This document shows positions 15,871 to 36,183 of a DNA stretch of 64,000 nt, piece after piece. Under the pieces are notes generated by a model. It was not told the origin of the DNA and did no database searches. It worked only from the letters and a program-made list of their open reading frames with translations. The position numbers were made by a program, and so were the translations under genes. The stretch comes from an uncultured Chloroflexia bacterium. GTDB lineage: Bacteria; Chloroflexota; Limnocylindria; Limnocylindrales; CSP1-4. Numbering within the stretch: position 1 is the stretch's first letter; each line of letters opens with the position of its first letter. The stretch covers positions 50,046 to 114,045 of the forward strand of contig CAWHSS010000003.1 in assembly GCA_963832105.1 (NCBI GenBank), given 5' to 3'.

Positions 15871-17239
15871 TCAACCCGCCGCTTCGACGCCGGTGATCGC
15901 GTGGGCAGCCTCCGCGGCATCGTGGAGCTTGTGATGCTCGCCCGCCACGTCGCCGACGGCCTCGCCGAAGATTCGGAGCGCGGTCGCCATCTCGGCCTCC
16001 GAGACCGTCAGCGCCGGCGACATCCGGACCGACGTCTTGCCACATTCGAGGACGAGGAGGCCGCGCTGGAAGGCGGCCCACTGGACCTCCTCGGCGTGCT
16101 CGGCCGTGTCGAACTCGATCCCGATCATCAGCCCGCGGCCGCGGACGTCAGTGATGAGCCCCGCGAAGCGGCTCCTGAGCTGGCCGAGCCCGGCGAACGC
16201 CTGCTCCCCGCGGACCCGGGCGTTCTCGACGAGGCCGCCCTCGAGGAGGTCGATCGTCGCGAGGGCCGCGGCACACGCCACCGGATTGCCGCCGTACGTC
16301 GAGCCGTGCGCGCCCGGCCCCCACGATTTCGAGCAGGTCGGCCCGACCGATCAGCGCCCCCAGCGGCATCCCCGACGCGATCCCCTTGGCCGACAGCACG
16401 ACGTCCGGCTTCACGTCCCACTGCTCGGCGGCCCACATCGTCCCGGTCCGCCCGGCGCCCGACTGGATCTCGTCGAACACGAGCACGATGCCGTGGCGGT
16501 CGCAGATCTCGCGGAGGCCGGCGAGGAACCCGTCCTCGGGGACGACGTAGCCGCCCTCGCCCTGGATCGGCTCGACGATGATCGCGGCGACCTCGTTCGC
16601 CGGGGCGAGCTTGTCGAACAGGACGTCGTCGAACCAGCGGAGGTCCTCGACGCGCCCGAACGGCGCGTGGAAGACGCCCGGCAGGAGCGGCCCGAACCCG
16701 GCGTGGTACTTCGCCTTGGACGCGGTCAGCGAGACCGAACCGTACGACCGGCCGTGGAACGCGCCGAGGAACGCGACGACGTACGGCCGCTTCGTCGCGT
16801 GGCGGGCGAGCTTGATCGCGGTCTCGACGACCTCCGTCCCGCTGTTGCCGAGATAGACGCGGGCCTTGCCACCGGCGATCGGCGTGATCTCGGCCAGGCG
16901 TCGGCAGACCTCGGGGTAGATCGGCAGGTAGAAGTCGGACGCCGAGAAGTGGATCAGCTCGGCCGCCTGCTCCTTGATCGCGGCCACGACCTGCGGGTGC
17001 GAGTGGCCGGTCGAGTTGACGGCGATGCCGGCGGCGAAGTCGAGGAAGAGGTTGCCGTCGATGTCCTCGATCGTCAGGCCTTCACCGCGGACGGGGACGA
17101 TCGGGTAGGCCCGCGGGAGGCTCGGCGACGTCCACGTCTCGTCGAAGGCGACGTGGGCCCGGGCCTTCGGGCCGGGGAGCTCCGTGATGATGTCGGGAAC
17201 GGGTCGCGATTCGGCAAGTCGTGCGGGAACAGCGGCCAC
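15871..17239 (-). CDS. gabT: 4-aminobutyrate aminotransferase (class III); apparent frameshift about 16280-16330
   Basis: ELPGPKA near the N-terminus; LDFAAGIAVNSTGHSHPQVVAAI and DEIQSGAGRTG...SAKGIASG are close to E. coli and M. tuberculosis GabT. GTG start. C-terminal domain in ORF 15871-16281. Confidence 0.75.
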
Positions 17240-17900
17240 GTGGGCACCTCGAGCGCATAGGAAGTATGCAGACTGGATATTCGATCGGCAGTCTAGCAGA
17301 GGCTCCGACGCGCTCGAGGGCGGTTGCGAGGGTCAGGCCAGGCGACGCCGACGGTTCATCGGCAGCAGCTCCGACACCGAGGCCCGCGAGAAGCCCGAGC
17401 CCGCCGGCAGCGAGGTACGGGACGGGCGAGTTGTCGTCCGATGCCGGCGCGGCGGGCGTGGTCGCTGAGACCGGCGTGATGTCGGCCGCGTCGGCGGTAT
17501 CGGCCGCCCCGGCGGCGACCGGCGCTCCGACGACGACGACGCCGGCCATCCCAGGATGGAGGCTGCACGAGTACGGATAGACGCCCGCGGTCCGGAATCG
17601 GGTCACGTAGCTCGCGCCGACGCCGAGGCTCGCCGTGCCCCACTCGCGATTGCGACCGGTCACGTCATGAGGAGAAACGGACGTATTGAGGAATGTGACC
17701 TCGGCCCCGAGCGGGACGCGCGTCACCGACGGGGCAAACGTGCAGCCGTCGATCTTCACGACCGTCGCCGAGCCCTCCGTCGCGGTCGTCCCTTCACCGC
17801 CATGACAACCACCGCCCGCCAGCGCGACCCCGGCCGCGGCCCAACCAAGAACCAGGATGAATGGAAGGAGCGCGAGAGAGACAGCGATCGTGCGGCGCAT
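17082..17900 (-). CDS. secreted cupredoxin (plastocyanin/azurin-like type-1 copper protein); the 3' part of the ORF is probably read-through
   Basis: Signal peptide; Cu ligands in SPHDVT...YPYSCSLHPGM (His, Cys, His, Met). The last 70 aa are a translation of a low-GC intergenic-looking stretch (17250-17300) and overlap the gabT start, so the true stop is probably near 17300. Confidence 0.55.
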   Translation of the reverse strand: MRRTIAVSLALLPFILVLGWAAAGVALAGGGCHGGEGTTATEGSATVVKIDGCTFAPSVTRVPLGAEVTFLNTSVSPHDVTGRNREWGTASLGVGASYVTRFRTAGVYPYSCSLHPGMAGVVVVGAPVAAGAADTADAADITPVSATTPAAPASDDNSPVPYLAAGGLGLLAGLGVGAAADEPSASPGLTLATALERVGASARLPIEYPVCILPMRSRCPRGRCSRTTCRIATRSRHHHGAPRPEGPGPRRLRRDVDVAEPPAGLPDRPRPR

Positions 17901-20472: not shown

Positions 20473-20512
20473 CGCGTCATGCTAGGTCGTATGCTCCGAC
20501 CGGGAGGTGCTG

Positions 20513-21294
20513 ATGGGCCTGCTTGACGGCAAGACCGCGCTGATCTTCGGCGTCGCGAACGATCACTCGATCGCCTGGGGGATCGCCCAGGCCTTTCACG
20601 CCGAGGGCGCGACGATCGGCTTCTCGTCGGTCGAATCGCTGATCGAGCGACGCGTCCGGCCGCTCGCCGAGTCGATCGGATCGACGTTCATCGAGCCGTG
20701 CGACGTCCAGGACGACGAGCAGATCAAGCGGGTCTTCGCGAAGTGGGCCGAAACGCACGATTCGCTCGACATCCTCGTCCACGCCCTCGCCTTCGCCAAG
20801 CGCGAGGACCTCGAGGGCGGCTTCACCGACGACGTCCCGCGAGGGCTTCGCGCTCGCCCTCGACGTGTCCGCCTACTCGCTCGTGGCCCTGACCCGCGAG
20901 GCGCGGCCGCTCCTGCGACCCGGATCCTCGATCCTGACGCTGACCTACTACGGCGCGGAGAAGGTCGTCGCGAACTACAACGTCATGGGCGTCGCCAAGG
21001 CCGCGCTCGAGGCGTCCGTTCGCTACCTGGCCGCGGATCTCGGGCCGGACGGCATCCGGGTGAATGCGATCTCAGCGGGCCCGATCCGGACGCTCGCGGC
21101 GGCAGGCATCGCCGGCTTCAAGAAGATGTACGGATCATTCGCCGAGACCGCGCCGCTGCGGGCGAACATCACGCCTGAGGACGTCGGGCGGGCGGCCGTC
21201 TTTCTCGCGTCCGACCTGTCGCGGCGCGGTGACCGGCGAGGTCATCTACGTGGACGGTGGGTTCAACGTCGTCGGGGTGCCGGTCGCGGACTGA
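20513..21294 (+). CDS. fabI: enoyl-[acyl-carrier-protein] reductase (NADH); 2 apparent frameshifts
   Basis: [33 protein letters not shown] (Rossmann motif); [29 protein letters not shown] (catalytic Y-x6-K); C-terminus [23 protein letters not shown] 6 bp upstream of the ATG at 20513. Confidence 0.8.
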
Positions 21295-21316: not shown

Positions 21317-21892
21317 CTAGTCGGCGACGGTGCCGGTGAAGTCCTTGACGTAGCGCGTCCGGGTGTCGGTCGCCTCGGGCTTCGCCTCGTCGTCGTCGTC
21401 CTCGACCTCGGGCAGGATCTCGATCCAGCTCGCCCGGGCGCGATTCACGAGGATCGTCTCGTGCGATTCCGTGGTCGCGACGCCGGCGCACTCGTAGGTG
21501 ATCGACGCGTCGGTGAAGGCGACGAGGATGTCGCGGCCGGCAAGGATTGCGGCCGGGTCGCCGCGCTGCGGCAGGTCGCCGCCGGACGGGTCGACATGGA
21601 GGCTGCCGACAACGGTGTATCGGCCGAGGCCGACAGTTACCCGCCGGACCGACGTCCTGCGCCGCCGCATCTCACTGCCCCGGCGACCGCTCCCGACGAC
21701 CGCGACCAGCTCGCCGACCGGGAGTGTCACGTCGCCGGTCAGCGGCATTCCGCCCTCCGCCAGATCGCCGACGACGGCGTCGCGCAGGACGACCCGGGTG
21801 ACGGAATTGAGCATGTCGCTGAGCCGGTCGTCGGCCAGCGGAATCATGGCCGTGATCTTGCGGTCAACCGTGAATCCGACGAACTCGATGGG
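21317..21892 (-). CDS. hypothetical protein (about 190 aa, acidic C-terminus), probably co-transcribed with the upstream coiled-coil gene
   Basis: Protein-like portion of ORF 21317-22198 starting at [13 protein letters not shown]. The upstream 100 aa of that ORF are a low-complexity read-through. Confidence 0.45.
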
Positions 21893-21992
21893 CATGCCGT
21901 CAGCCTGAGGCGGAGGTGCCGAGATGACTATTGGCCGTTGGTAATGGGACCCGTTGGCACTCCGGTCCGGGCCGTCGGATCGCGGGCCTCGG

Positions 21993-22988
21993 TCAGCGGG
22001 CCTGGGCGCCTTTTTCGGGCATGTCCCCGTCGGCTTGAGTTGTCCACGGCGCAATGGAGCGCAGCAGTCGGACGGCCACGTTGGAATGGTCGGCCGACTC
22101 CGCGACGGCCACCTCGACGCCCTCGTCGGCCTCGACGTGCAGGGCGTCTGCCGGGGGCGCCGTGGCTGATGTGGGAGCAGGCTCGGCCTCGTCCTCACCT
22201 AGGTCGGCGGCGGGTAGATCGTCCGACCGGCCGACGGCATCGGGATCCATGACACCCAGGCCTGCGCCGGGCTCGGCCGACGTCGTCTCCATGTCGGGTG
22301 ACCCAACCTCGCTCTCGGGCGACGCTTCAACTCCTGCGGCGGAGTCGGGCCGCGACGAGGAATCGGCCCCTTGGTCGTCCGCGTCGTGGTCCGGCACGTT
22401 CGCTAGCTCCGCCACCGCGCCGGCCCGCGCTGCGGCCCTGATCTCGTCGAGATCCGGCGGCGTCGGGAGCGAATCGGCACGTCGGACGATCTCGGTCGGG
22501 TTGGTCGAGCTCGTGAGCTCATCGAAGAACCGGTCCAGCTCCGCCCGGTAGCCGCGGATGGCCACGTCGACGCCGCCGATCTCGGTCGCGATGATCGACT
22601 CGTGCTTGGCGAGGTAGACCTCGAGGCTCTTGCGGCGCTCGTCCGTGCGCCGGTCCGCATCACGGCGGATCCGCTCGATCTCGGTCTTCGACCAGTCCTT
22701 GATGCGGGCCACGTCTTCTTCGGCCAGCCGGCTCAGCTCCTCGGCCTCGGCAGCCGCCCTCGTGCGCGCCTTCTCGACGTGCTCGGCGGCGTCCTGCGCG
22801 ACGACCTCGGCAATGCGGTCACGTTCCCGCACCGCGGCGGCTTGCATGGCACGCGCCAGCTCCGCCAGGAACGCCGGCAGGATGCTCGTGGCGCCTCCGG
22901 CGTCGTCCGGCCTCTCCACGGTGGCGATCATCGGACTGGCGACGGGCGCTTCAGGGTCGGTCGGCTTGCTCTGGTACATCTGGGGCAC
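21993..22988 (-). CDS. acidic coiled-coil protein of unknown function (paralog of 35186-36183)
   Basis: 331 aa: a roughly 140-aa charged helical core (ELARAMQAAAV...AIRGYRAELDRFFDEL) followed by a D/E/P/A-rich tail with a GVMDP motif. Confidence 0.55.
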   Translation of the reverse strand: MPQMYQSKPTDPEAPVASPMIATVERPDDAGGATSILPAFLAELARAMQAAAVRERDRIAEVVAQDAAEHVEKARTRAAAEAEELSRLAEEDVARIKDWSKTEIERIRRDADRRTDERRKSLEVYLAKHESIIATEIGGVDVAIRGYRAELDRFFDELTSSTNPTEIVRRADSLPTPPDLDEIRAAARAGAVAELANVPDHDADDQGADSSSRPDSAAGVEASPESEVGSPDMETTSAEPGAGLGVMDPDAVGRSDDLPAADLGEDEAEPAPTSATAPPADALHVEADEGVEVAVAESADHSNVAVRLLRSIAPWTTQADGDMPEKGAQAR

Positions 22989-23113: not shown

Positions 23114-23839
23114 TCAGTCGGTGCCGCGGATCTCGTACGTTGCGAGTCGGACGCTGCCGAGCGCGATCGCGAGAACCAGCGCGAAGGCCGCGTAGAGGAA
23201 CCCGCCCGCCCCGATGATCGAGTCGGCGACCGCCCCGGGAGCGAGGGCCTCGGCGATGCCGCCGATGTATTCCCGGACGCTGAAGACCTGGGTCCCCGGC
23301 AGGAGCCCGGACAGCAAGCCCTCCCAGATCAGCGAATAGGCCAGGCCGATGATCAGGCCGCGCGATGTCACGACGCTCAGCACCAGGAAGATCGCCACGT
23401 AGAGGAACGACCCGACGAGGTTCGCCAAGGCGAACGCGAACGTGACCGCGATGTTGTCCGAACCGAAGCCGCCCAGAAGGAACCCTGCCACGACCGTCGA
23501 TGGCACGACGAGCGCGGCGGTGAGCATGCCGGCGACGGCGATCTTCGCCGCGACGATCGTCCAGCGGCTGATCGGCTTCGTGAGGATGTGGATTGCGGTC
23601 CCGTCATCCAGCTCCGAGCCGAGCGCCGCGGTTCCGAACACGAGGGCGACGACCGGCAGGACGATGCGGACGACGAAGCCGTCGATCGTCGGGCCGATGT
23701 TGTCCAGCTCCGAGTCGTTGGCGCGGACGAGCAGCCCGAGCAGGACCGGCGTGCCGGCCAGCAGGACCATGAGCAGCGTCCGTCGCCGGCCGAGCAGGGC
23801 CCGCATCGTGACGCCGGCGATCGTCGCGAAGATCGTCAT
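23114..23839 (-). CDS. ABC-2 type transporter permease
   Basis: 241 aa, 6 TM. ATGA overlap with the upstream ATPase stop. Confidence 0.75.
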   Translation of the reverse strand: MTIFATIAGVTMRALLGRRRTLLMVLLAGTPVLLGLLVRANDSELDNIGPTIDGFVVRIVLPVVALVFGTAALGSELDDGTAIHILTKPISRWTIVAAKIAVAGMLTAALVVPSTVVAGFLLGGFGSDNIAVTFAFALANLVGSFLYVAIFLVLSVVTSRGLIIGLAYSLIWEGLLSGLLPGTQVFSVREYIGGIAEALAPGAVADSIIGAGGFLYAAFALVLAIALGSVRLATYEIRGTD

Positions 23840-24827
23840 CGGCGGGAGACCAGGTAGGCGAAGACGCTCTCGAGCGAGTCGTCGGTCGGGGCGACCTCGT
23901 ACAGCGTCACCGACGCGTCGCGGGCGACGCGGGCGACGGCGCGGGTGAAGCCGGCGAACTCGGCGACCCGGACCGTCAGGCGGTTCTCGCGGAGCTCCGT
24001 TCCGAAGACCGCCGGCTCGGCCATGAACGCGGCGGCCAGCCGGCGATCGTCCGACGAGCGGACGAGGAACGTGTGCGGCCGGTCGGTCATGAGCCGCCGG
24101 ATCTCGCGGAAGTCGCCGGCCGCGGCGAGGCGGCCCGCGACGATGACGAGGACGCCGTCGGCGAGCCGCTCGACCTCCTCGAGGATGTGCGACGAGAAGA
24201 GGATCGTCCGCCCGGCCGCGGCCATCGACCGGAGGAGATCCATCATGTGCAGCCGCTGGCGCGGGTCCATCCCGTTGAACGGCTCGTCGAGCAGGAGGAT
24301 CGCCGGATCGTGGACGAGCGCGGCCGCGATCTTGGCCCGCTGGCGCATGCCCTTCGAATAGGTCCCGATCGGGCGGTCGGCGGCGGCTTCGAGGTCGACG
24401 GTCCGCATCGCCCGGGCGGCGGCCGCCGCGGGATCGGGAAGGCGCTGGAGGCGCGCGGCGAGCGCGGCGAACTCCCGGCCGGTCAGGAACGAATGAACCG
24501 CCTCGCGCTCGGGCACGAGGCCGATCGATCGGTAGACGTCGGGGTTGCGCCAGGCCGACTGGCCCGCGACCCGGATCTTGCCGCTCGACGGCCGGAGAAG
24601 GCCCGCGAGCATGTGCAGCAGGGTCGTCTTGCCGGCGCCATTCGGGCCGAGGAGGCCGGTGATCCCCGGCGCAAGCGCGAACGAGATGTCGTTGACGGCG
24701 ACGACGTTGCCGTACCAGCGCGAGACGCGCTCGAGGATGATCGCCGGCTCCGACGCGGACGCCGCCGGCGCGCGAACGGCGGGGCGGTGGCGTCGACGGC
24801 GGCCGGCGTCGCGTCGGGGGCGGTCAT
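23836..24827 (-). CDS. ABC transporter ATP-binding protein (ABC-2 exporter type); apparent frameshift in the first 20 codons
   Basis: Walker A GPNGAGKTT, signature YSKGMRQR, Walker B ILLLDEP, H-loop. The ATG at 24825-24827 overlaps the upstream permease stop (ATGA) but is out of frame with the body. Confidence 0.8.
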
Positions 24828-25742
24828 GCGGTGTACCGGGCGAAGCGTCGGATCGTGATCGCGATTGACCCGACGATGCCCGCGATCGCCGCCGCGAAAT
24901 ACGCGATGTCGGGCAGGCTGATGAAGAAGAACTCCGAGCCCAGCTGGGTCCCGAACAGGGCCGCGTTCGTCCCATCCAGCACGGACGACGGGCTCGTGAG
25001 GAAGAGCCAGTTGCCGATGTCCGACGATCCGAGCCCGGCGATGACCCCGGCGACGATTCCCGGGATCACGAACAGGGCGATGATCCCCGCCGTGGCGTAG
25101 GCCCGACGCGGCGTGAAGGCCGAAATCACCATCGCCAGCCCGCCGAGGAGCCCGGCCGACAGGAGCCCCTGGATGAGGATCGGCGGGACCGACGGGAGAT
25201 CGTTCCGGACCGCCGCGACGACGTCCGGCGACAGCAGGGCGCGCCCGATGAACAGCACGAGCTGGGGCACGAGCTCCATGATGAGAAGCGCGGCGACGAA
25301 GCCGCCGACGCGGGCGAGGGCGTAGTCGGATCGGCGGAGCGCGCGGGCGAAGTACAGCGACAGGATCCCGTAGCGCTGGTCGCGGCCGAACAGCTCCGGG
25401 GCCTGGGCCGCGCAGAACAGGGCGACGATCGTCGAGATCGTGCTGAAGTACGTGTCGTAGCGGATCGGTGACTGCTCCGCGAGCTGCTCGCCGGCGCCGA
25501 ACCGCATGGCCAGCGTCAGGACGCCGACGATCGCGAGCGCCGGGAGGATCGCCAGCGCCCCGAGGATGAACGGCGCGATCTTGGCCCGACCGCCGCGGCC
25601 GATCCCGTAGGCAGTCCGAAGGCTGTGGAGGAACAGCGAGCGGATCGCGTGCGCGCGACCGAGCCGGGGGCCCTTCGTAGCCGCGATAGCCGATGTCGTA
25701 GATCGAGCCGGTCGGGGTGCCGACCGAGATCGGGGCCGTCAT
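24824..25742 (-). CDS. ABC-2 type transporter permease; apparent frameshift near 25500
   Basis: N-terminus MTAPISVGTPTGSIYDIGYRGYEGP in the long 24483-26735 frame; TM body in ORF 24824-25507. ATGA overlap with the upstream ATPase stop. Confidence 0.65.
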
Positions 25743-26735
25743 CGGGCGGCCTCGTCGGGGTCGGGCGGCGGCGCGGCTGGGGCCGGCGCCGCCGGCGGCG
25801 GTCGCCGCCGGAGTCTCCGCCCCGGGCGGGATCGGCATGTCGCGGAAGAGGTCCTCGAGCTTGTGGCGCCGCTGCTCGATCCGGACGAGCGCGAGGCCGA
25901 GGTCGACGATCGTGTCCCGGACGATGTCGTAGGGCCGCTCGTCGGTGAGGGCGATGAGGACCGCCCTTCCGTCGGCGATCGCCTCGAGGCCCTGGGCGGT
26001 GAGCCGCGCAGCGAGCGCCTCGCTCCCCTCCTCCACCTCGACCGCGAGCGTTCCGGTCTGCTCGGTGAAGGAGCACGAGCGGCGCGGCGCGGAGGAGCCG
26101 GCCGCCCTCGATGGCAACGAGGAAGTCGCAGACGCGTTCGATCTCACCGAGCAGGTGCGAGGCGACGATCGTCGGCGATGCCGAATACGGTGCCCGTGCG
26201 CTGAATCAGCTCGAGCATCTCGTCGCGGCCGGCCGGATCGAGCCCGTTCGTCGGCTCGTCGAGGAGCAGGAGGCGTGGGTCGTGGACGAGCGCCTGGGCG
26301 AGCTTGACCCGCTGCTTCATCCCCGTCGAGTAGCCGCCGATCGCCCGGTAACGCTCCTCGTACAACCCGACGTGCCGCAGGACCTCGGCGGTTCGCTCGC
26401 GGGCGGCCGCCCGCGGGAGCCCCGACATGAGCGCGAGATGCGAGACGAAGTCGGTCGCCGATGCGTCGGGCGGCAGGCAATCGTGCTCCGGGCAGGTAGC
26501 CGACGAACTGGCGGATGTCGGTGCCGCGGGTCCGGACGTCCATGTCGAAGACGGTCGCCTCGCCGGACGTCGGGTCGATGAGCCCGAGGAGGATCTTGAG
26601 CAGGGTGCTCTTGCCGGCGCCGTTCGATCCGACCAGCCCGACGATGCCGCGCTCGATGTCGACCGTCAGGCCGTCGAGCGCGGTTACGCCGCCCGGATAG
26701 CGCTTCGTGAGCGATCGGATGGAGACGAGGGCCAC
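25739..26735 (-). CDS. ABC transporter ATP-binding protein (second copy); at least 2 apparent frameshifts
   Basis: MALVSIRSLTKRYPGGVTALDGLTVDIERGIVGLVGSNGAGKSTLL (Walker A); signature and Walker B in ORF 26144-26428 (YSTGMKQRVKLAQALVHDPRLLLLDEPTNGLD); C-terminal regulatory domain back in the first frame. Confidence 0.75.
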
Positions 26736-26787: not shown

Positions 26788-27571
26788 TCAGCGGAGCGCA
26801 GCCTCCAGCGCGACCCGGGCGTCGGTGCCCTCGTCGCGGTGCTTGACGATGATCGCCGTCGCGATCGACAGCCCGTGCTCCGACGCGAACGCGCCGGCCG
26901 CCGGCCTCGCGCCGGGAACGACGACGGCGCCCGCCGGCACGGCGAGAGGCTCGTCGACGGTCCCGACGAGAATCTCGTCGCGGGTCAGGTCGTAGATCCG
27001 CGACGTCCCCGTCAACGTGACGCCCGCCCCGATGACGGCGCCGCGGGCAACGAGCACGCCCTCGAGGAGGACGCTCCCGGCCCCGACGAAGGCACCGTCC
27101 TCGACGATGACCGGCCGCGCGCCGGCCGGTTCGAGGACGCCGCCGATCAGGACGCCGGCCGCAAGGTGCACGTCCGAGCCGACCTGGGCGCACGAGCCGA
27201 CCAGCACATGGCTGTCGACCATCGTCCGCTCGCCGACCCACGCCCCGATGTTCACGTACGACGGCGGCATGACGACCACGCCCTCTCCGAGGTGAGCGCC
27301 GGCGCGGATGCTCGTGCCGCCGGGGACGATCCGCCAGGGTCCGTCGCTCAACGCTCGCGGCGGGACCGAGGCGCGGTCCCGGAACCAGAACGGCCCGACC
27401 GTCCAGTCCTGCGTCGTCCGATCGGCGAACCGGGCAAGGATGGCGGCCTTCACGTCGGGTCGGACGCGCCAGCCGCCGGGCGCCGGCAGGATCCGGTTCG
27501 GCCGCCCTGATCCGACCGCTCTCGAGATCCTCGAGCAGCGTCGCCTCGTCGATGTCCGTGAGCGCAATCAC
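26788..27571 (-). CDS. dapH: 2,3,4,5-tetrahydropyridine-2,6-dicarboxylate N-acyltransferase (hexapeptide-repeat DapH/DapD family); apparent frameshift near 27480
   Basis: Left-handed beta-helix repeats GAWVGERTMVDSHVLVGSCAQVGSDVHLAAGVLIGGVLEP...PVIVEDGAFVGAGSVLLEGVLV align with Bacillus DapH. GTGA overlap with the dapA stop. Confidence 0.7.
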
Positions 27572-28553
27572 GCCACTGCCTCCTGGGCCTGGCCGGCCAT
27601 CCGACCGCCGGACGCCTCGACGAGGCCCGTCGCCCGGAGCACGTCGGCCAGCCGAGCTCGCGCCGCGTCGTCGAGCGAGAGGAGTGGCGCCCGGACCGCG
27701 TCGCCGTCCAGGAGTCCCATCATCGCGAGCGCCGCTTTGACCGGGACCGGGTTCGGGCCGCCACGGAAGTTCGCGAGGAAGAGCGGCAGCCAGCGCTCGT
27801 GATGGTGCCGCGCACCGTCCCAGTCGCCCGCCCGGGCGGCGGAGCAGAGAGCTGCCATCTCCCCGGGGATCTCGTTCGAGGCGACCGAGATGACGCCGTC
27901 GCCACCGAGCGCGAGGACCGGCAGGGTCCAGGCGTCGTCGCCGGCGAGGACCGCGACGTCGCGCGGCCGCTCGCGGCAGATCCGGGCGATCTGCTCGAGA
28001 TTTCCCGAAGCCTCTTTGATGGCCACGACGCGCGGGTGTTCGGCGAGCCCGAGAAACGTGTCGGCGTCGACGTTCGTGCCGGTTCGCGACGGGACGTTGT
28101 AGACGACGATCGGCAGGCCGCCGTCATCGGCGATCGCGCGGAAATGCGCCGCGAGCATGCGCTGATCGGGACGGTTGTAGTACGGAGCGACGACGAGCGC
28201 GGCGTCGGCGCCGAGGTCTGCCGCCCGCCGCGTGGCGCGGACCGTCGCCGCGGTGTCGTTGGTACCCGTTCCGGCGACGACGGCGACCCGGCCGCGCGAC
28301 GGTCGCTCGCCGACGGTCTCGACGGCGATGGCGATGAGCCGGTCGCGCTCGGACTCGGAGAGCGTCGGGGCTTCCCCTGTCGTCCCGACCGGGACGAGGC
28401 CGTCGATGCCGGCAAGAACCTGCCACCGGACGAGCCGGCGGAACGCGGCCTCGTCGACGTCGCCATCGGCCGTGAACGGCGTGACGAGGGCGGTCAACGC
28501 GCCCCTCAACGCAGGGCGGCTCGGAGCCTGTGGGTGCGGACGATCGTGGTCAT
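27568..28553 (-). CDS. dapA: 4-hydroxy-tetrahydrodipicolinate synthase; apparent frameshift within the first 15 codons
   Basis: LTALVTPFTADGDVDEAAFRRLVRWQ...GVDGLVPVGTTGE...VIAGTGTNDT...PYYNRP...KEASG (catalytic Lys). ATG at 28553 with an AAGGAG RBS 8 bp upstream. Confidence 0.8.
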
Positions 28554-28580
28554 CGGAGGATCTCCTTGTCTCTGTTCGGA

Positions 28581-29307
28581 TCAGGCGGTTGCGGCGAGGG
28601 CCGGAGCCGCGAGCAGCTCGTCGACGACCTCGTCGAATTGATGGATTCCGGGCGATCTGGGCGTCGCGCGACAGCCAGTCGGCGGCGGCGAGCGCGCCGG
28701 CGGCATAGGCCGATCGGTCCCGCGCCGTGAGGCGCAGCTCGATCGTCTCGCCGGGCGAGTCGAACCCGACGAGGTGCATCCCGGGCGACGCGCCGGCCCG
28801 GATGACGGCGACCTCGAGGTCGCGCGGGGCCGGCGACGCGGCGGCGATGCGCCGGGCGAGCTCGCGGGCCGTGCCCGACGGGCGATCCCGCTTCGACCGT
28901 CGGTGCCACTCGAGCAGGTAGGGCTCGAAGTCGTCGATCGGGCCGAGCAGTTCCGACGCCCGCTCGACGAGCCGGAAGAAGAGCGCCGCCCCGATGCTGA
29001 GGTTCGGCGCCACGACGGCTGCGGCTCCGTGGGCCCGGAGGTCGGCCTCGACGGCCGGCCGATCGGGGTCCCAGCCGGTCGTCGCGATCACGAAACGGCG
29101 GCAGCCGGCAGCGAGCGCGGCCGCGACGTTGTCGCGGACCGCGTCGGACCGGGACGCCTCGATCGTCAGGCCGGGAGTGCCGAGGTCCGTGCGGTCGCGG
29201 GCCCGGCCCGCCGGCCGGCCGAGCAGCAGCGCCTCCGTGCCACGTCCGCGGAAGGCAGTCGCGATCGCCGCTCCGAGCGGGCCGTCGCCGAGAATGATCG
29301 TGTCCAT
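28581..29307 (-). CDS. dapB: 4-hydroxy-tetrahydrodipicolinate reductase; apparent frameshift near 28660
   Basis: LEWHRRSKRDRPSGTA matches the DapB E(A/W)HH..K.DAPSGTA motif. C-terminus ...GIHQFDEVVDELLAAPALAATA* is recovered in the +1 frame. In the 601-aa ORF it is fused in-frame to dapA only because of the shift. Confidence 0.8.
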
Positions 29308-29370
29308 CGCTGGTCCCTCGCTAGGTTGCCGAGGGGCCTTCGCGTGTCGGGGGCAACAAAAAACCGCGGT

Positions 29371-29409
29371 CACCGTTTGGTGTCCGCGGCCCCTGGAGCC
29401 TCCGATCCC
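29371..29409 (-). terminator. rho-independent terminator candidate after the ftsH / small-protein operon
   Basis: Minus-strand reading: ccgcggacaccaaacggtgaccgcgg hairpin (10-11 bp stem) followed by TTTTTTGTT. A second hairpin gcctccg-atcc-cggaggc lies adjacent. Confidence 0.45.
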
Positions 29410-29608: not shown

Positions 29609-30178
29609 CTAGGCCGACAACCTCGCGGATCGCTGGTAGCGCTCCATCAGCTCGGCGATGACCTGGCGCGCTTCGCGCCACTCCTGCTGATCGCCGAAGA
29701 TCTCGGCGTCCTTGCCCCATCGGCCGAGCTGGGCCATGGCCGTGACGATCGCCGAATGCTGGTACGAGCGACGGCGCCCGCCATCGATTGCGCCGGTCAC
29801 GAGGTATCGGCGGACCAGGTCGAACGGCGCCTCCCATCGACCGATCCTGATTCGGTCGCCGATGCGCATCGACTCGAGCAGATCGTCGTCGCCGACCGGG
29901 AACTGGTCGTGCTCCTCCATGTGGGCGACGAGGTCGACCCGACCGAGGTTCGGCCGGTGAGACGGCAATCGTCCGTCGTCGCCGACCGTCTGGTAGCAGC
30001 TCGGGCAGCTCGGCAGCGCCGCGTCGGATCGTGGCTGGTCCCCGAAGGGCAGGCCGCACCGACGGCAGAAGGTGATGTCAGGCGTCGGCGCGGCCGTCCC
30101 GCACTGGAGGCAGACGTTGCCCTGGCTGCCCGATGGCCGACCAGAACCCTGGCCTCCGAGCGAGAACGACAACTTCAC
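29609..30178 (-). CDS. hypothetical protein with a double zinc-ribbon N-terminus and an alpha-helical C-terminal domain
   Basis: CLQCG...FCRRCG and CPSCYQ Cys pairs. GTG start with a GAGAGGAAG RBS. 4-bp overlap with the upstream small gene. Confidence 0.55.
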   Translation of the reverse strand: MKLSFSLGGQGSGRPSGSQGNVCLQCGTAAPTPDITFCRRCGLPFGDQPRSDAALPSCPSCYQTVGDDGRLPSHRPNLGRVDLVAHMEEHDQFPVGDDDLLESMRIGDRIRIGRWEAPFDLVRRYLVTGAIDGGRRRSYQHSAIVTAMAQLGRWGKDAEIFGDQQEWREARQVIAELMERYQRSARLSA

Positions 30179-30582
30179 GAATACTTCCTCTCGGTGGTCA
30201 TGCGGATCAGTCTTGGGGGCTTGGCGTTCGCTCGAGCCTGGGCGGAATTGGCGATCAGCCGCCGAAGCGTGACCAGTCCATCGAGAGCGGCGCCGACCTG
30301 GCCCCGTTCGAGGATCAGGATCGGCAGCGGGTCAGATCGGTGGGAGAGCTGAAGGAGGATCACCGGCAACGATCCGTAGTTGCCGATCGAAGCGCCACCG
30401 AGGTCGTCATACGACCAGGGCTCTCGGGGAACACGCCGGACGAGCGACGGGCCGCCGCAGCGGCAAACGGTGAGCTGGTCGAGGCCGACGAGGACAGTGG
30501 ATCCGGCCGCACCCTGAATTCGGGCAACGACGTTTCCGACGTCCTTGGCGCAGGTACAAATGGAGCTGCCGGCAATTGCCAT
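30175..30582 (-). CDS. small Cys-containing hypothetical protein (135 aa)
   Basis: Protein-like tail of the 968-aa read-through ORF, starting MAIAGSSICTCAKDVGNVVARIQG with a CxC...CRCGG motif. AAGGA RBS 7 bp upstream of the ATG at 30582. Confidence 0.5.
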   Translation of the reverse strand: MAIAGSSICTCAKDVGNVVARIQGAAGSTVLVGLDQLTVCRCGGPSLVRRVPREPWSYDDLGGASIGNYGSLPVILLQLSHRSDPLPILILERGQVGAALDGLVTLRRLIANSAQARANAKPPRLIRMTTERKYS

Positions 30583-30999
30583 GGGTGTCCTTGGGGATGA
30601 GTGCTTGGTCGTAGCCCAACCGTAGGCGACTGGGCTCGAATCCGGCATCACCGCCTCGGGGATTCCCGGTGGCAGAACGTCCCGAAAGCAACTGCGGTGT
30701 CTGTACCAGATGGGAGTTGCGAACCAGCCTAGAGCTGGTCGCCCTCTGGCTCGGTCGAGCGCAGCCAGGTGTGGGCACGCTCCAATACCCCGACCGCTAC
30801 GTTCCGCAGCCGGCGCGAGGCGACGGCACGCCGTCCCGTTGACGGGCGTCGCTGTGGCGAAGCCGGCGGGGGCACGAGTCTGGCGGGGCGCGATCGAGGC
30901 CACGCTCGCGCGGGCGGGTGCGACGGCGGGCAACACCTGGGCACCGGTGATGGCCGACGCCTCCAGCTCCGCGGCGACGACGGCCGCGATCACCGGGGC

Positions 31000-33081
31000 C
31001 GGCCGGACACGATGCGCCGCGAGGTCGACCACTTCGCCCCAGGCGCGAGGTCGGGCCGTCGCGGCGCGCCACTCGTCACCTGCGTTGTGGACGACCCGGC
31101 GGCCATCGAAGAGCTCGTCGAACGTCTCGCCGTCGACCCGCTCGTGCTCGACGAGGTACGCGGCGAGCCGGCGGAGCGTGTCCATGTTGTCGATCAGCGT
31201 CCGACAGGCCTCGGCGTACGCGCCGTCGAGGATCGAGCGGATCGCGCGCGTGGCCGCGGCCTGGACGTCCGACGGCAGGCTTCGGCCGCCTGGCAGCGGG
31301 ACGAGGAACGACAGGCTGCCGCGGCCGGAGACGCCGTGATCGCTGGCCTCGGGGTCGCGGCCCATGCCCCATCGGGTGACCATCGCGACGGCGATCTTGT
31401 TCGCCTCCTCGAAGTCGTTCGAGGCGCCGCCCGTGACCTCGTGGAAGAGGAGCTCCTCGGCCGCCCGGCCGCCCATCAGCGCGACGAGCCGAGCCCGCAG
31501 GTCGGACTCGGACGGCAGGTCGTTGTCCTCCTGGCTGCTGACGGTGACGCCGAGCGCCTCGCCGTGGGCGAAGAGCGAGATCTCCTCGACTCGGCGCTTG
31601 TCGCCGTGGACCTTGCCGCAGATGGCGTGACCGACTTCGTGGGCCGCGATGATCGACCGCTCGCGCTCGTCCATCGACCGCCGGCGGGACGTCCCGACGG
31701 CGACCTTGAGCCAGCCGCCGTGGAGGTCCTCGGTCTGGATCGAGCTCGCCGGATCGGCGGGCCGCGAGGATCGCGGCCTCGTTGAGCAGGTCGGCGAGCA
31801 TGCGCCCCGGAGAAGCCGTAGGTCTTGCGGGCGAGTGTCCTCGAGGTCGATCGTCGGGGCCAGCGGCTTGTTCCGGGCGTGGACCGCGAGGATCGCCTTG
31901 CGGCCGGCGACGTCGGGCAGGCCGACGTGGATCTTGCGGTTGAAGCGGCCCGGTCGGAGGACGGCCGGGTCGAGGATGTCGAGCCGGTTCGTCGCGGCGA
32001 TGACGATGACGTCGTCGGTCGTCCCGAAGCCGTCGAGCTCGACGAGCAGCTGGTTGAGCGTCTGCTCGCGCTCCTCGTGGCTGTTCGGGCCGCCGCGGGC
32101 CTTGCCGATGGCGTCGAACTCGTCGAAGAAGATGACGCCGCGGCCGAGCTTCCGGGCCTGCGCGAACAGGTCGCGGACGCGCCGCGCGCCGACGCCGACG
32201 TACTTCTCGACGAACTCGGAGCCCGAGGCGTGGTGGAACGGCACGCCGGCCTCGGCCGCGACGGCGCGGGCGAGCATCGTCTTGCCGGTGCCGGGCGGGC
32301 CGTAGAGCATGATGCCGCGCGGAATGCGCGCGCCCAGCTTGTGGAACCGCTCCGGTGACTTGAGGAACTCGATCGTCTCGGTCAGCTCGAGCTTCGCTTC
32401 GTCGCAGCCGGCGACGTCGTCGAGGCGGACCGCGACGATGAGCGGGTCCACGACGGGCGGCTCGACCGAGCCGTCCGCGCGTGGGGCCCCCGGCATGATC
32501 GTCCGGAATGACGAGCTCTCGCGCTGCCCCGAGCCGTTCCGGCGGGACATCCGCAGGACGAGCATGAGCGTGATCACCAGGATCCCGACCGGCAGGACGA
32601 TGCCCATGATGTTCAGGCCCGACTCGGTCCGAGGCCTGCTGACCTCGAGGGCCTCGGTCGTCAGGAGATTGCTGTAGCCGAGCGCGGTGAGCGCCGAGAC
32701 CGCTTCTCCGGCGGTGACCGTCAGGTCGACGGGAATGACCTGGCCGTCCTTCGTCCGGACGAGAAGCGTCTGGGTCGGCTGGCCGGAAGGCCCGGTCGCC
32801 TCGGCGGCGGTGATCGCCGTGACCTCGCCTGCCTCGACGTGCCGCTGGAGCTCGACGAGCGACCAACCCTCGACGAACGTGAACGTCGGCGCGGTGACGG
32901 TCGAGCCCGCGGGCGCGGGCGGGTTGGCGCGGAGCAGGTACAGGGACGTCACGGCGGCGATGGCGAGAACTGCGGCGACGGTCACGACGGCGGCTGCCCA
33001 TGGCCGGCGGCGGACCGCGGCGGTACCGCGTACCGAGAGTCGACGGAGGTTGCGCTGGAGGCGGCGAGGATCGGGGGTCAT
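31000..33081 (-). CDS. ftsH: ATP-dependent zinc metalloprotease FtsH; at least 1 apparent frameshift near 31900 and an uncertain 3' end
   Basis: Two N-terminal TM helices; AAA+ Walker A GPPGTGKT, Walker B VIFFDEFDA, SRH ATNRLDILDPAVLRPGRF; HEVGH zinc motif. LADLLNEAAILAARR is in the alternate frame (ORF 31076-33001). No in-frame stop before 30175, so the real terminus is presumably reached through another shift. Confidence 0.8.
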
Positions 33082-34410: not shown

Positions 34411-34465
34411 TCGCGTCAGCGGGCCGATCGCGCTGATCGGCCCGCTGAAATTCTGCCGGAGCTCC

Positions 34466-35012
34466 TAGTCGTCGTCGCCGTCGACGGCCCTGATCTGGGC
34501 GCGGATCTCGCCGCCCGGGAACTTCGTCGAATGGACGTTGACGTAGGCGTGTCCGGCGCGCATCGCCTTGATGAGCTCGCGAACGCCCCTGCCTCGATCC
34601 CCTGCACGGCCGGTCCGACGACGTCACTCGCGTCGACATCGCCGGTCACCGTGCCCGAGGTCGGGCACATCGGCGGGTTGGTGCCGGCCGGCGCGGGAGC
34701 TGCTGCCGTCTGGCACAGCCAGATCGAGATCCCGCCGTTGACCGCCCGCTTTCCGAAGTGGATATGGGACTGGGTTACGGCCGCCTCGAGGCGAGAGAAA
34801 CGGAGCTCGTAGTGGAGCGTGGTGCCGTCGCTGGAGAGCCTCGCCTCGAACGATCCGCGCGCGACCGTCGAGATGTCCGGGTTCTCTTCGTAGCCATTGA
34901 GCGGACTCGCCTTGAAGTTCCTGGCCTCGCCACCAGCCAGGGCATTCGCGCCGACCACGATGAGCAATGTGAGGGCTCCGAGAGCCACGGCACGGAGCGT
35001 ACGTTTCGACAT
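34466..35012 (-). CDS. secreted CHRD domain-containing protein; apparent frameshift about 34560-34600
   Basis: Signal peptide; HIHFGKRAVNGGISIWL is the CHRD signature. C-terminus ...GHAYVNVHSTKFPGGEIRAQIRAVDGDDD* is recovered in a second frame. GAGGAGG RBS upstream of 35012. Confidence 0.7.
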
Positions 35013-35185: not shown

Positions 35186-36183
35186 CTAGTCCTCGCTTCG
35201 TCGCAGCCAGCTCATCGGCCGCTTGGCGGGGATCGACTGGAGGAGGGCGCCGGTGCCGCCGACCGTCCGGCTCACCGCGGCCGTGACCGTGTCATCGGAG
35301 ACGCTCACTGGCTCATCGGCTCGGGTGGCCGCGCCGGCCTGATCGGCATCGACGGAGGATTTCGACGGGGTCGGGCGTGGAGATAGCCTCGGGCGCGGCT
35401 GCCCACGACTCGACCGGCTCCGCCGGTGCCGCCGGATCCATGACGCCGACGACCTCGGGCTCGTCCGCGGAGGCGGGCTCCACCACGGCCGTATCCGTGT
35501 CCGCCGGCGCCTCGGCGGCGACGGCTCCGCCAACCGCATCGAGTGCCGGGAAGGCCGGGCGCAGGGCCGCCTTCTGGGCGATGAGGATCGGGTCCGTCTC
35601 GCGGTCCAGGTTTTCGAAGTAGGCCGAGACCTCCGCTCGATACGTGGCGATCGCCGCGTCGATGCCTTCGATCTCCTTGTCGATCTTCGAGCCATGCTCC
35701 GCGAGGCTCGCCGCGAGATCCTCGCGGACTGCCGTCGCCCGACGCTCACGCTCGAGGTGGATTTCGAGCCGTCTCGCGGTCGACCCACGCGTCGATCGCG
35801 GCCATGTCCTCGTCGGCGAGCTCGCGCATGCGATCGGCTTCGGACGCCTTCCGGGCATGGACCCTGTCGATCTCATCCTGTCGCCGGCGATCGATGTCCT
35901 CGCTGATCCTGATGCGCTCCAGGCCGGCCGTCGCCTGCATGGCCCGAGCGAGCTCGGCGATGAACGCTGACCCGTCATCGGCGGCCAGGGAGTCGCCTCC
36001 GATTTCGGGCGTCTGCGCGCGGGGTCTCGGCTACTACGGAGACAGGGGCGTCCTCGTCGATGACCTCTTCGGCGGACGGCGTGCCGTCACTCAGCTCAGC
36101 GTCGGTCGCCGCGGCCACATCGCCGAGCGGCTCCGCAATGCCGACGGCATAGTCCGGGCTTACGCCGTTCGCGCTCGAATTCA
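35186..36183 (-). CDS. acidic coiled-coil protein of unknown function (paralog of 21993-22988); at least 2 apparent frameshifts
   Basis: Assembled from ORFs 35975-36349 (MNSSANGVSPDYAVG...), 35746-35940 (...AELARAMQATAGLERIRISEDIDRRR...), 35313-35978 (LEIHLERERR...AIATYRAEVSAYFENL...VGVMDPAAPAEP) and the tail of 35186-35788. Confidence 0.5.

Follow-up and report, generated by a model that had tools for sequence, protein, structure and literature searches.

In a window of 64,000 nucleotides from an uncultured Chloroflexia bacterium (GTDB lineage Chloroflexota, Limnocylindria, Limnocylindrales, CSP1-4; assembly GCA_963832105.1, contig CAWHSS010000003.1, positions 50,046 to 114,045 of the forward strand), two genes encode acidic proteins dominated by a charged helix. 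Here termed copy 1 and copy 2, they raise three questions: are the two proteins truly related, do they belong to any described family, and what might they do for the cell? A sequence-only reading had proposed that they are paralogs fitting no known family, and every string it quoted in support was recovered (AELARAMQA; AIRGYRAELDRFFDEL versus AIATYRAEVSAYFENL; EEDVARIKDW versus DEDMAAIDAW; GVMDP in both tails). We found that copy 1 and copy 2 are true, anciently duplicated and divergent paralogs, and that they represent a genuine, previously undescribed and class-restricted family.

Evidence for paralogy came from both pairwise and profile comparisons. With compositional adjustment, tblastn aligned residues 38-181 of copy 1 to the region of copy 2 (E 5e-18; 40-43% identity). 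When the alignments of the two subfamilies (subfamily 1 containing copy 1, subfamily 2 containing copy 2) were compared by hhalign, the probability was 99.9% (E 4.2e-33), with 151 gap-free columns and 40% identity. In an alignment of 35 sequences drawn from both subfamilies, 11 columns were invariant and 28 were conserved at 90% or more, including H128, W98, Y146, P174, P177 and the V-M of GVMDP. The sequence-only reading had itself raised a simpler explanation, namely that the resemblance reflects the low-complexity composition of charged helices and that no real family exists. The core is indeed 44% charged and 18% Ala, and the tails are of low complexity, but the match persisted under compositional adjustment, the hhalign alignment was gap-free at 99.9% probability, the invariant and near-invariant columns include H, W, Y and P residues, and 853 clusters were recovered at E ≤ 1e-10. 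The compositional explanation is thereby refuted, and its probability is negligible.

We further investigated the size and distribution of the family. Copy 1 had 161 word-indexed homologs, the best being 96% identical, and the reconstructed copy 2 had 193, the best being 89% identical at 99% coverage. A profile of both subfamilies retrieved 976 clusters (50% identity) at E ≤ 1e-3, and nearly all members are named 'hypothetical protein'. Related loci were then collected from species-representative genomes with the subfamily-1 alignment, and 32 of the 35 were from Limnocylindrales, Chloroflexota or 'uncultured Chloroflexia' metagenome-assembled genomes (MAGs). The three exceptions include Acidimicrobiales and Verrucomicrobiia bins (loci L040 and L042), in which the contigs were 8-20 kb long; these members are probably mis-binned, lateral transfer being less likely. 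The family is thus restricted to uncultured Limnocylindria (Chloroflexota) of soil. Limnocylindria are abundant in soil and freshwater; to our knowledge, they have never been cultured and their cell biology is undescribed. A literature search retrieved no paper joining Limnocylindria with coiled-coil.

Both subfamilies also occur together elsewhere. One MAG carries members of both (locus tags VFY18_07490 and VFY18_01090), and on CAVRFC010000005 (L007 and L010) and CAWBHP010000016 (L008 and L039) they lie about 15 kb apart, as in the window. The spacing of about 14 kb first noticed in the window is therefore an arrangement of about 14-15 kb kept in related genomes. At six further loci (L014, L015, L019, L022, L031 and L036) a second family member was located 3-4 kb from the first. 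With about 1000 clusters at 50% identity and at least two paralogs per genome, the family is large and deserves a Pfam entry; for now, the finding amounts to the annotation of a hypothetical family and falls short of a discovery.

The coordinates of both genes, their parts and their neighbours are given in Table 1. Copy 1 occupies the intact open reading frame (ORF) at 21993-22988 that had been proposed, although its start is most likely the ATG at 22979, which is preceded by GAGG 9 nt upstream and matches the M[Y/D]Q with which all homologs begin. The protein has a computed isoelectric point of 4.4 and a net charge of -35, and no transmembrane segment was identified (maximum 19-residue Kyte-Doolittle mean, 1.24). 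Promoter and terminator scans around copy 1 and copy 2 found nothing in this window of about 70% G+C.

An AlphaFold2 (AF2) model of copy 1, built with a 26-sequence alignment and described here in ORF numbering, separated the protein into a rod, a cap and a tail. Residues 1-30 were disordered, and a single unbroken helix extended from residue 35 to 159 with a predicted local distance difference test (pLDDT) score of 95-99. Two cap helices (163-170 and 179-195, pLDDT above 90) flank the invariant LPxPPDLDxxR, in which P174, P177, D178, L179 and R183 are the invariant residues in subfamily 1. The remaining tail had a pLDDT of 35-50, interrupted by a short helix at 303-311. Conservation followed the same division. 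The helical core is gap-free and of equal length in both subfamilies, whilst the tail varies in length and is unalignable outside two islands, GVMDP and a C-terminal peptide. Across both subfamilies, the V and M of GVMDP never vary and the conservation of D and P is 90% or higher; of 371 family proteins, with fragments counted, 295 contained a GVMDP-like pattern. The C-terminal peptide took several forms among these 371 proteins (AAVRLLRSIAPWT, PMSWLRR, GAGSWLRWPN and AARFLRSLTxWG). In subfamily 1 it had a hydrophobic moment (muH) of 0.64, a value reached by 1.8% of shuffles, and was followed by some 16 further polar residues. From its strict sequence conservation, docking to a protein would explain this peptide at least as well as membrane binding.

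Table 1 Features of copy 1, copy 2 and the adjacent genes (positions in the 64,000-nucleotide window)
Feature	Start	End	Strand	Basis or remark
Copy 1 (subfamily 1), coding sequence	21993	22979	-	328 aa plus stop; intact ORF 21993-22988
Copy 1, N-terminal variable acidic segment, residues 1-36	22872	22979	-	Predicted disordered, pLDDT below 50; weakly conserved in subfamily 1
Copy 1, long continuous helix, residues 37-156 (FLAELARAMQ...FFDELT)	22512	22871	-	AF2; 11/3 hydrophobic seam
Copy 1, helical cap, residues 157-194, invariant LPxPPDLDxxR	22398	22511	-	AF2 and alignment
Copy 1, acidic Ala/Pro/Asp/Glu-rich tail, residues 195-328, net charge -25	21996	22397	-	pLDDT 35-50, predicted disordered
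Copy 1, GVMDP short linear motif of the tail	22242	22256	-	Conservation across both subfamilies
Copy 1, C-terminal amphipathic motif VRLLRSIAPW	22044	22073	-	Invariant A, R, L, R, W; short helix in AF2
Copy 2 (subfamily 2), gene of 351 codons with four 1-nt insertions removed	35186	36245	-	As sequenced, without a continuous ORF
Copy 2, helical core, homologous to copy 1 residues 38-181	35538	35970	-	tblastn frames -2 and -3; frame split near 35764
Copy 2, GVMDP, then conserved ESWAA	35433	35447	-	Three-frame translation and subfamily-2 homologs
Copy 2, C-terminal motif ALLQSIPAKRPMSWLRR	35198	35248	-	Subfamily 2: S, P, R invariant; R, W, R near-invariant
Adjacent 192-aa Sm/LSm-like gene	21317	21895	-	Acidic tail, C-terminal YVKDFTG; judged a neighbour, not a component
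ABC-2 permease (23114-23839) and ABC ATPase (23836-24975), upstream of copy 1	23114	24975	-	Pfam ABC2_membrane_2/4, ABC_tran
CHRD-domain gene downstream of copy 2, tail apparently frameshifted	34416	35012	-	Pfam CHRD, E 3e-12, profile positions 3-81 of 117

The register of the 120-residue helix was the most distinctive feature of the rod. In the alignment-averaged spectrum, hydrophobicity peaked at a period of 3.67 residues (11/3), with a power of 61 versus 2.3 at 3.5, and this peak was reached by 4/1000 shuffles for both subfamilies combined and by 2/1000 for subfamily 1 alone. The resulting seam consists of three hydrophobic positions per 11 residues with a 4-4-3 spacing and many Ala in the first half; its residues are near-invariant, and many invariant polar residues are distributed along the helix. 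A heptad coiled coil was rejected, as the register is hendecad (11/3) and carries no signal at 3.5. A single alpha-helix of the ER/K type was also judged unlikely: charged residues make up only 44% of the core, and the near-invariant hydrophobic seam is present.

No described family accommodates these proteins, as had been suspected. Pfam and NCBIfam searches of copy 1, the adjacent gene and a copy 2 fragment gave nothing significant. DivIVA (PF05103) had no match at E ≤ 1 for copy 1 or at E ≤ 0.1 for the 35 members, and ATP-synt_B (PF00430), vATP-synt_E (PF01991) and FliH (PF02108) had no Pfam match among the same 35 at E ≤ 0.1. The NCBIfam models for ATP synthase b, the b/delta fusion and FliH matched copy 1 below threshold (E 0.055-0.35; 10-13 bits versus cut-offs of 65-328), with TIGR01144 at 10.7 bits (cut-off 65.5), PRK13428 at 12.6 (328) and NF005198 at 11.5 (200). 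Apolipoprotein (PF01442) gave weak, sub-threshold matches in 22/35 members (best E 1e-6), was present among precomputed matches and scored 11 bits on copy 1 against a gathering threshold of 90. These weak echoes of ATP synthase b and b/delta, FliH and Apolipoprotein are explained by the hendecad periodicity. At the structural level, a profile search of PDB sequences returned a single chance match (E 1.3) and a Foldseek search of PDB with the AF2 model had a best E of 2. Domain organisation pointed the same way. An F-type b subunit is contradicted by an acidic, disordered N-terminus in place of a transmembrane anchor and by the absence of atp genes from the window and five related loci, and A/V-ATPase E and FliH by the 38-residue helical cap and subsequent disorder that follow the rod. 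The family does share the 11/3 seam of F-type b and A/V-type E/G stalks, a physical feature and not evidence of homology. Membership in every family considered is rejected.

Copy 2 differed from the initial description. Expected as an ORF of about 330 aa at 35186-36183, the region instead translated with many stops and fragmentary ORFs, and in a three-frame translation homology ran through frames 2, 0, 1, 2 and 0 in turn. DNA alignment against the short-read contig L006, which is 95% identical and codes for an intact ortholog of 351 aa (P0121), resolved the damage into exactly four 1-nt insertions, near 36177, 36024, 35764 and 35362. The start is GTG 36245, with GGGGAGGG upstream as the Shine-Dalgarno sequence. 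Copy 2 is likely to be intact in the organism because removal of the four bases leaves no in-frame stop, the start, Shine-Dalgarno sequence and terminal motifs are intact, and the ratio of nonsynonymous to synonymous substitution rates (dN/dS) against L006 is 0.42.

The frameshifts themselves are most probably long-read assembly errors because the whole window is rich in indels. Comparison of positions 12400-33000 (20.6 kb) with the 97.3%-identical L001 gave 61 indels, mostly of 1 nt and intragenic; single-base indels average about 1-2 per kb locally. Several genes bear the marks of this. The SDR at 20507-21178 looks broken (match to positions 1-91 of 236 only), the ORF of an ABC ATPase at 24483-26735 is disrupted, a single ORF (27568-29373) merges DapB with DapA, and the FtsH ORF (30175-33081) is 968 aa long versus 766-813 aa in other Chloroflexota genomes. 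Two of the four copy 2 insertions share the identical context TCG[A]AATCC, and at all three TCGAAATC sites in the window (16325, 35358 and 35760, minus strand) there is one A more than in close relatives, the site at 16325 being judged against L001. The ratio of TCGAAATC to TCGAATC was 2:31 in short-read loci, 9:38 in Microflora Danica (MFD) long-read loci and 3:9 in the window, and the extra A may reflect a Nanopore insertion error that depends on sequence context, perhaps where the motif is modified. The window's relatives are MFD MAGs, which are Nanopore-only assemblies given one round of Medaka polishing (PMC12313526). The protein read by eye at copy 2 thus crosses four frameshifts, and frameshift-aware gene calling is needed for this Nanopore-type assembly.

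Decay of copy 2 into a pseudogene, which would leave one functional family member at the locus, was considered as an alternative explanation. Four frameshifts in 1.06 kb lie somewhat above the local rate, at the high end of the local error, and this weighs against an intact copy 2. Against decay, every change is a 1-nt insertion, with the shared TCG[A]AATCC context and a third such site also bearing an extra A; the corrected gene lacks in-frame stops and retains its start, Shine-Dalgarno sequence and C-terminal motif; the dN/dS of 0.42 stands; the same kind of damage affects neighbouring genes; and orthologs are intact in short-read assemblies and other genomes. We consider a pseudogene unlikely, albeit with a real minority share of the probability.

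The surrounding genes were next compared across related loci. The ABC-2 exporter upstream of copy 1 and the CHRD gene beside copy 2 are both present as described, and the start of the supposed 190-aa gene moved from 21892 to 21895. The adjacent gene is a member of a well-conserved family numbering 405 or more homologs, about 193 aa in length, with an invariant 11-residue stretch and a C-terminal YVKDFTG. Named a partner of copy 1 in the sequence-only reading, it is not a dedicated one. It follows the family gene only in the closest clade (L001, L003, L008, L010 and L012); in other Chloroflexota its immediate upstream neighbour is ftsH, the same SDR/HAD/aldehyde dehydrogenase genes come after it, and the vicinity holds no family gene. 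The more distant members of the family stand alone beside CAP, phosphoglucomutase or SDR, and the 192-aa gene is absent there. Exporter linkage fared no better as a conserved association, adjacency to the ABC-2 genes being retained only in the closest clade; at L045 a membrane protein and Fur come after these genes in place of the coiled-coil gene. Neither the 192-aa gene nor the ABC-2 exporter is a conserved companion of the family. Clustering of ORFs at 40 loci, which is noisy in indel-rich DNA of 70% GC, likewise identified no operon partner.

Predicted structure placed the 192-aa protein elsewhere. It is predicted to be two-lobed, with a helix ahead of a five-stranded bent beta-sheet that can be superposed on Sm proteins, in keeping with an Sm/LSm-like fold. 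DUF6812 (PF20660) scored 16.3 bits (E 0.01) against a gathering threshold of 27.1, and several homologs carry precomputed PF20660 matches; by sequence, the protein is probably a divergent relative of DUF6812, a domain that our literature search found no mention of. It differs from Sm/LSm and DUF6812 proteins in its two-lobed form of about 190 aa, its acidic tail and its conserved C-terminal YVKDFTG. Its linkage to ftsH was observed in two independent genome contexts on five contigs and may be functional.

Other observations concerned genes close to the family. Phosphoglucomutase recurred beside family genes at 12 loci and lies between the two copies in L014, and a cold-shock-domain gene was found upstream of family genes in about eight loci. 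The CHRD neighbour of copy 2 is also present at L007; in the window, the CHRD gene (34416-35012, minus strand) has a signal-peptide-like N-terminus and a C-terminal third resembling out-of-frame sequence, damage that is probably another indel. Further away, downstream of the SDR/HAD/aldehyde dehydrogenase block, the ORF at 17082-17900 (minus strand) encodes a plastocyanin/azurin-type copper-binding domain (E 2e-6).

Given this architecture, a structural or scaffolding function is plausible. Our tentative picture, to which we assign somewhat less than even weight as a whole, is that the family comprises cytoplasmic rod-plus-tail adaptor or scaffold proteins. The long helix would pair in register with a second helix, either as a homodimer or as a subfamily-1/subfamily-2 heterodimer, because a seam that stays narrow and conserved over 120 residues calls for another helix to pair with. 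Together the two helices would give a non-heptad coiled coil of about 18 nm, straight or slightly right-handed, with the flexible acidic tails acting as tethers. The tail peptides could then dock onto one or more conserved partner proteins or, alternatively, the C-terminal amphipathic helix could dock onto a membrane surface, such that the pair might organise or position something at a fixed distance. A fixed-length rod combined with strictly conserved peptides makes the family a reasonable candidate for a lineage-specific structural organiser. Any one specific cellular process is given much less weight than this scaffold.

Several observations weigh against the scaffold as drawn. The AF2 model is of a monomer, and we infer dimerisation, handedness and the heterodimer. 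Subfamily 2 taken alone peaks at 3.67 without significance (243/1000 shuffles), and its C-terminal motif is not clearly amphipathic (not significant versus shuffles). An anionic membrane would repel the acidic tail. The neighbours (ABC transporter, CAP, phosphoglucomutase, SDR, FtsX-like permease and cold-shock gene) offer no consistent functional clue, and no domain fusions were seen in the longest family members, the long ones resembling frameshifted or over-extended calls.

More specific functions were weighed against the adaptor or scaffold. The proteins might be divergent subunits of the peripheral-stalk or stator type, from a rotary ATPase or a type III export apparatus (ATP synthase b or b-delta, A/V-ATPase E/G, FliH), holding a catalytic head by means of a right-handed coiled coil. 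Hendecad periodicity in an Ala/Glu/Arg/Leu-rich helix, as in b and E/G (PMC6131620), is consistent with this, as are the sub-threshold NCBIfam matches (E 0.055-0.35, for the b/delta fusion, FliH and b), some JGI records that bear the name 'ATP synthase subunit b/b'', weak structural lists in which the M. smegmatis b-delta chain and a b chain of ATP synthase occur, and the existence of two paralogs, which could mimic an E-G pair. However, those matches reached 10-13 bits versus cut-offs of 65-328, none of the 35 members matched ATP-synt_B, vATP-synt_E or FliH in Pfam (E ≤ 0.1), the N-terminal membrane anchor is missing, neighbourhoods with listed gene content contain no ATPase or export-apparatus genes, and a long disordered tail bearing short linear motifs (SLiMs) is foreign to such subunits. 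A stalk subunit is therefore already largely refuted, and we regard it as highly improbable. Less remote, and still improbable, is an 11-mer amphipathic helix of the apolipoprotein, perilipin or LEA kind that lies flat on lipid or becomes ordered on drying, with no coiled coil. The 3.67 periodicity is the signature of a 3-11 helix, 22/35 members match PF01442 weakly (best E 1e-6) and the host lineage is soil-dwelling. Yet the hydrophobic stripe is narrow (3 of 11 positions, with many Ala), the helix sequence is unique and conserved position by position with no reiterated 11-mer, PF01442 scores fall far under the 90-bit cut-off, and invariant charged residues elsewhere on the helix surface suggest specific protein contacts.

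A division or polarity role would be a special case of the scaffold, not an independent explanation. Here the protein would be a lineage-specific cytoskeletal element in the manner of DivIVA, FilP/Scy, PopZ or an FtsZ membrane tether, a self-assembling rod whose C-terminal W/R helix binds the membrane or a divisome protein. A rod with a flexible linker and a terminal amphipathic peptide would suit such a role, C-terminal SWLRR and SWLRW can be likened to the membrane-targeting helix of FtsA, and genomes carry multiple paralogs. There is, however, no match to a hidden Markov model of DivIVA or another division family, neighbourhoods with listed gene content hold no dcw-cluster or division genes, and nothing indicates filament formation, leaving this role unlikely. 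A bolder elaboration of the scaffold combines several of these elements and is, in our estimation, similarly unlikely: subfamilies 1 and 2 might form an obligate in-register heterodimeric right-handed rod with independently evolved E/G-like geometry, at the core of a Limnocylindria-specific cytoskeletal or membrane-tethered organiser whose GVMDP and C-terminal W/R peptides would recruit conserved machinery of the cell (e.g. for division or envelope synthesis).

Comparison with known systems places the adaptor or scaffold among several unrelated rods and tethers. Seams with an 11/3 repeat also underlie the 3-11 amphipathic helices of apolipoproteins; the family resembles Apolipoprotein A1/A4/E (PF01442) in its 11-residue periodic amphipathic helix, and differs in its sub-threshold scores, its narrow seam and the absence of 11/22-mer reiteration. 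In rotary ATPases, hendecad seams also produce the right-handed stalks b2 and E-G, which consist of two helices (PMC6131620). As in E. coli b2 and A/V-ATPase E-G, the family has an Ala/Glu/Arg/Leu-rich hendecad helix of 120 residues or more and a small domain after the rod, and whilst E-G pairs two different chains of matched length (PMC6131620), the family consists of two subfamilies with equal-length cores. The resemblance to these stalks is geometric only: there is no sequence or fold match, no anchor and no ATPase operon, and the disordered acidic tail of about 130 residues with its conserved peptides is foreign to stalk subunits.

DivIVA, crescentin, FilP/Scy and PopZ are likewise cytoplasmic, rod-dominated and lineage-restricted, with acidic or Pro-rich flexible regions and a presumed structural role, and Scy and FilP use non-heptad, hendecad-containing repeats. 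The family shares no homology with them and is set apart by a single fixed-length rod in place of long repetitive ones and by a defined pair of terminal or tail SLiMs. For the tails, the closest parallels are tethered-peptide recruiters such as the linker and C-terminal peptide of FtsZ, the acidic tail of SSB and the ribosomal stalk proteins P1/P2 or L7/L12. These also combine an oligomeric core (putative in our family), a flexible linker of variable length and a short, strictly conserved terminal peptide to which partners dock, though the core here is unrelated and GVMDP, LLRSxAPW and PMSWLRR match none of their peptides. The architecture is thus of a familiar general kind and its register is unusual, making the family an example, outside rotary ATPases, of a long rod with a seam that repeats every 11 residues.

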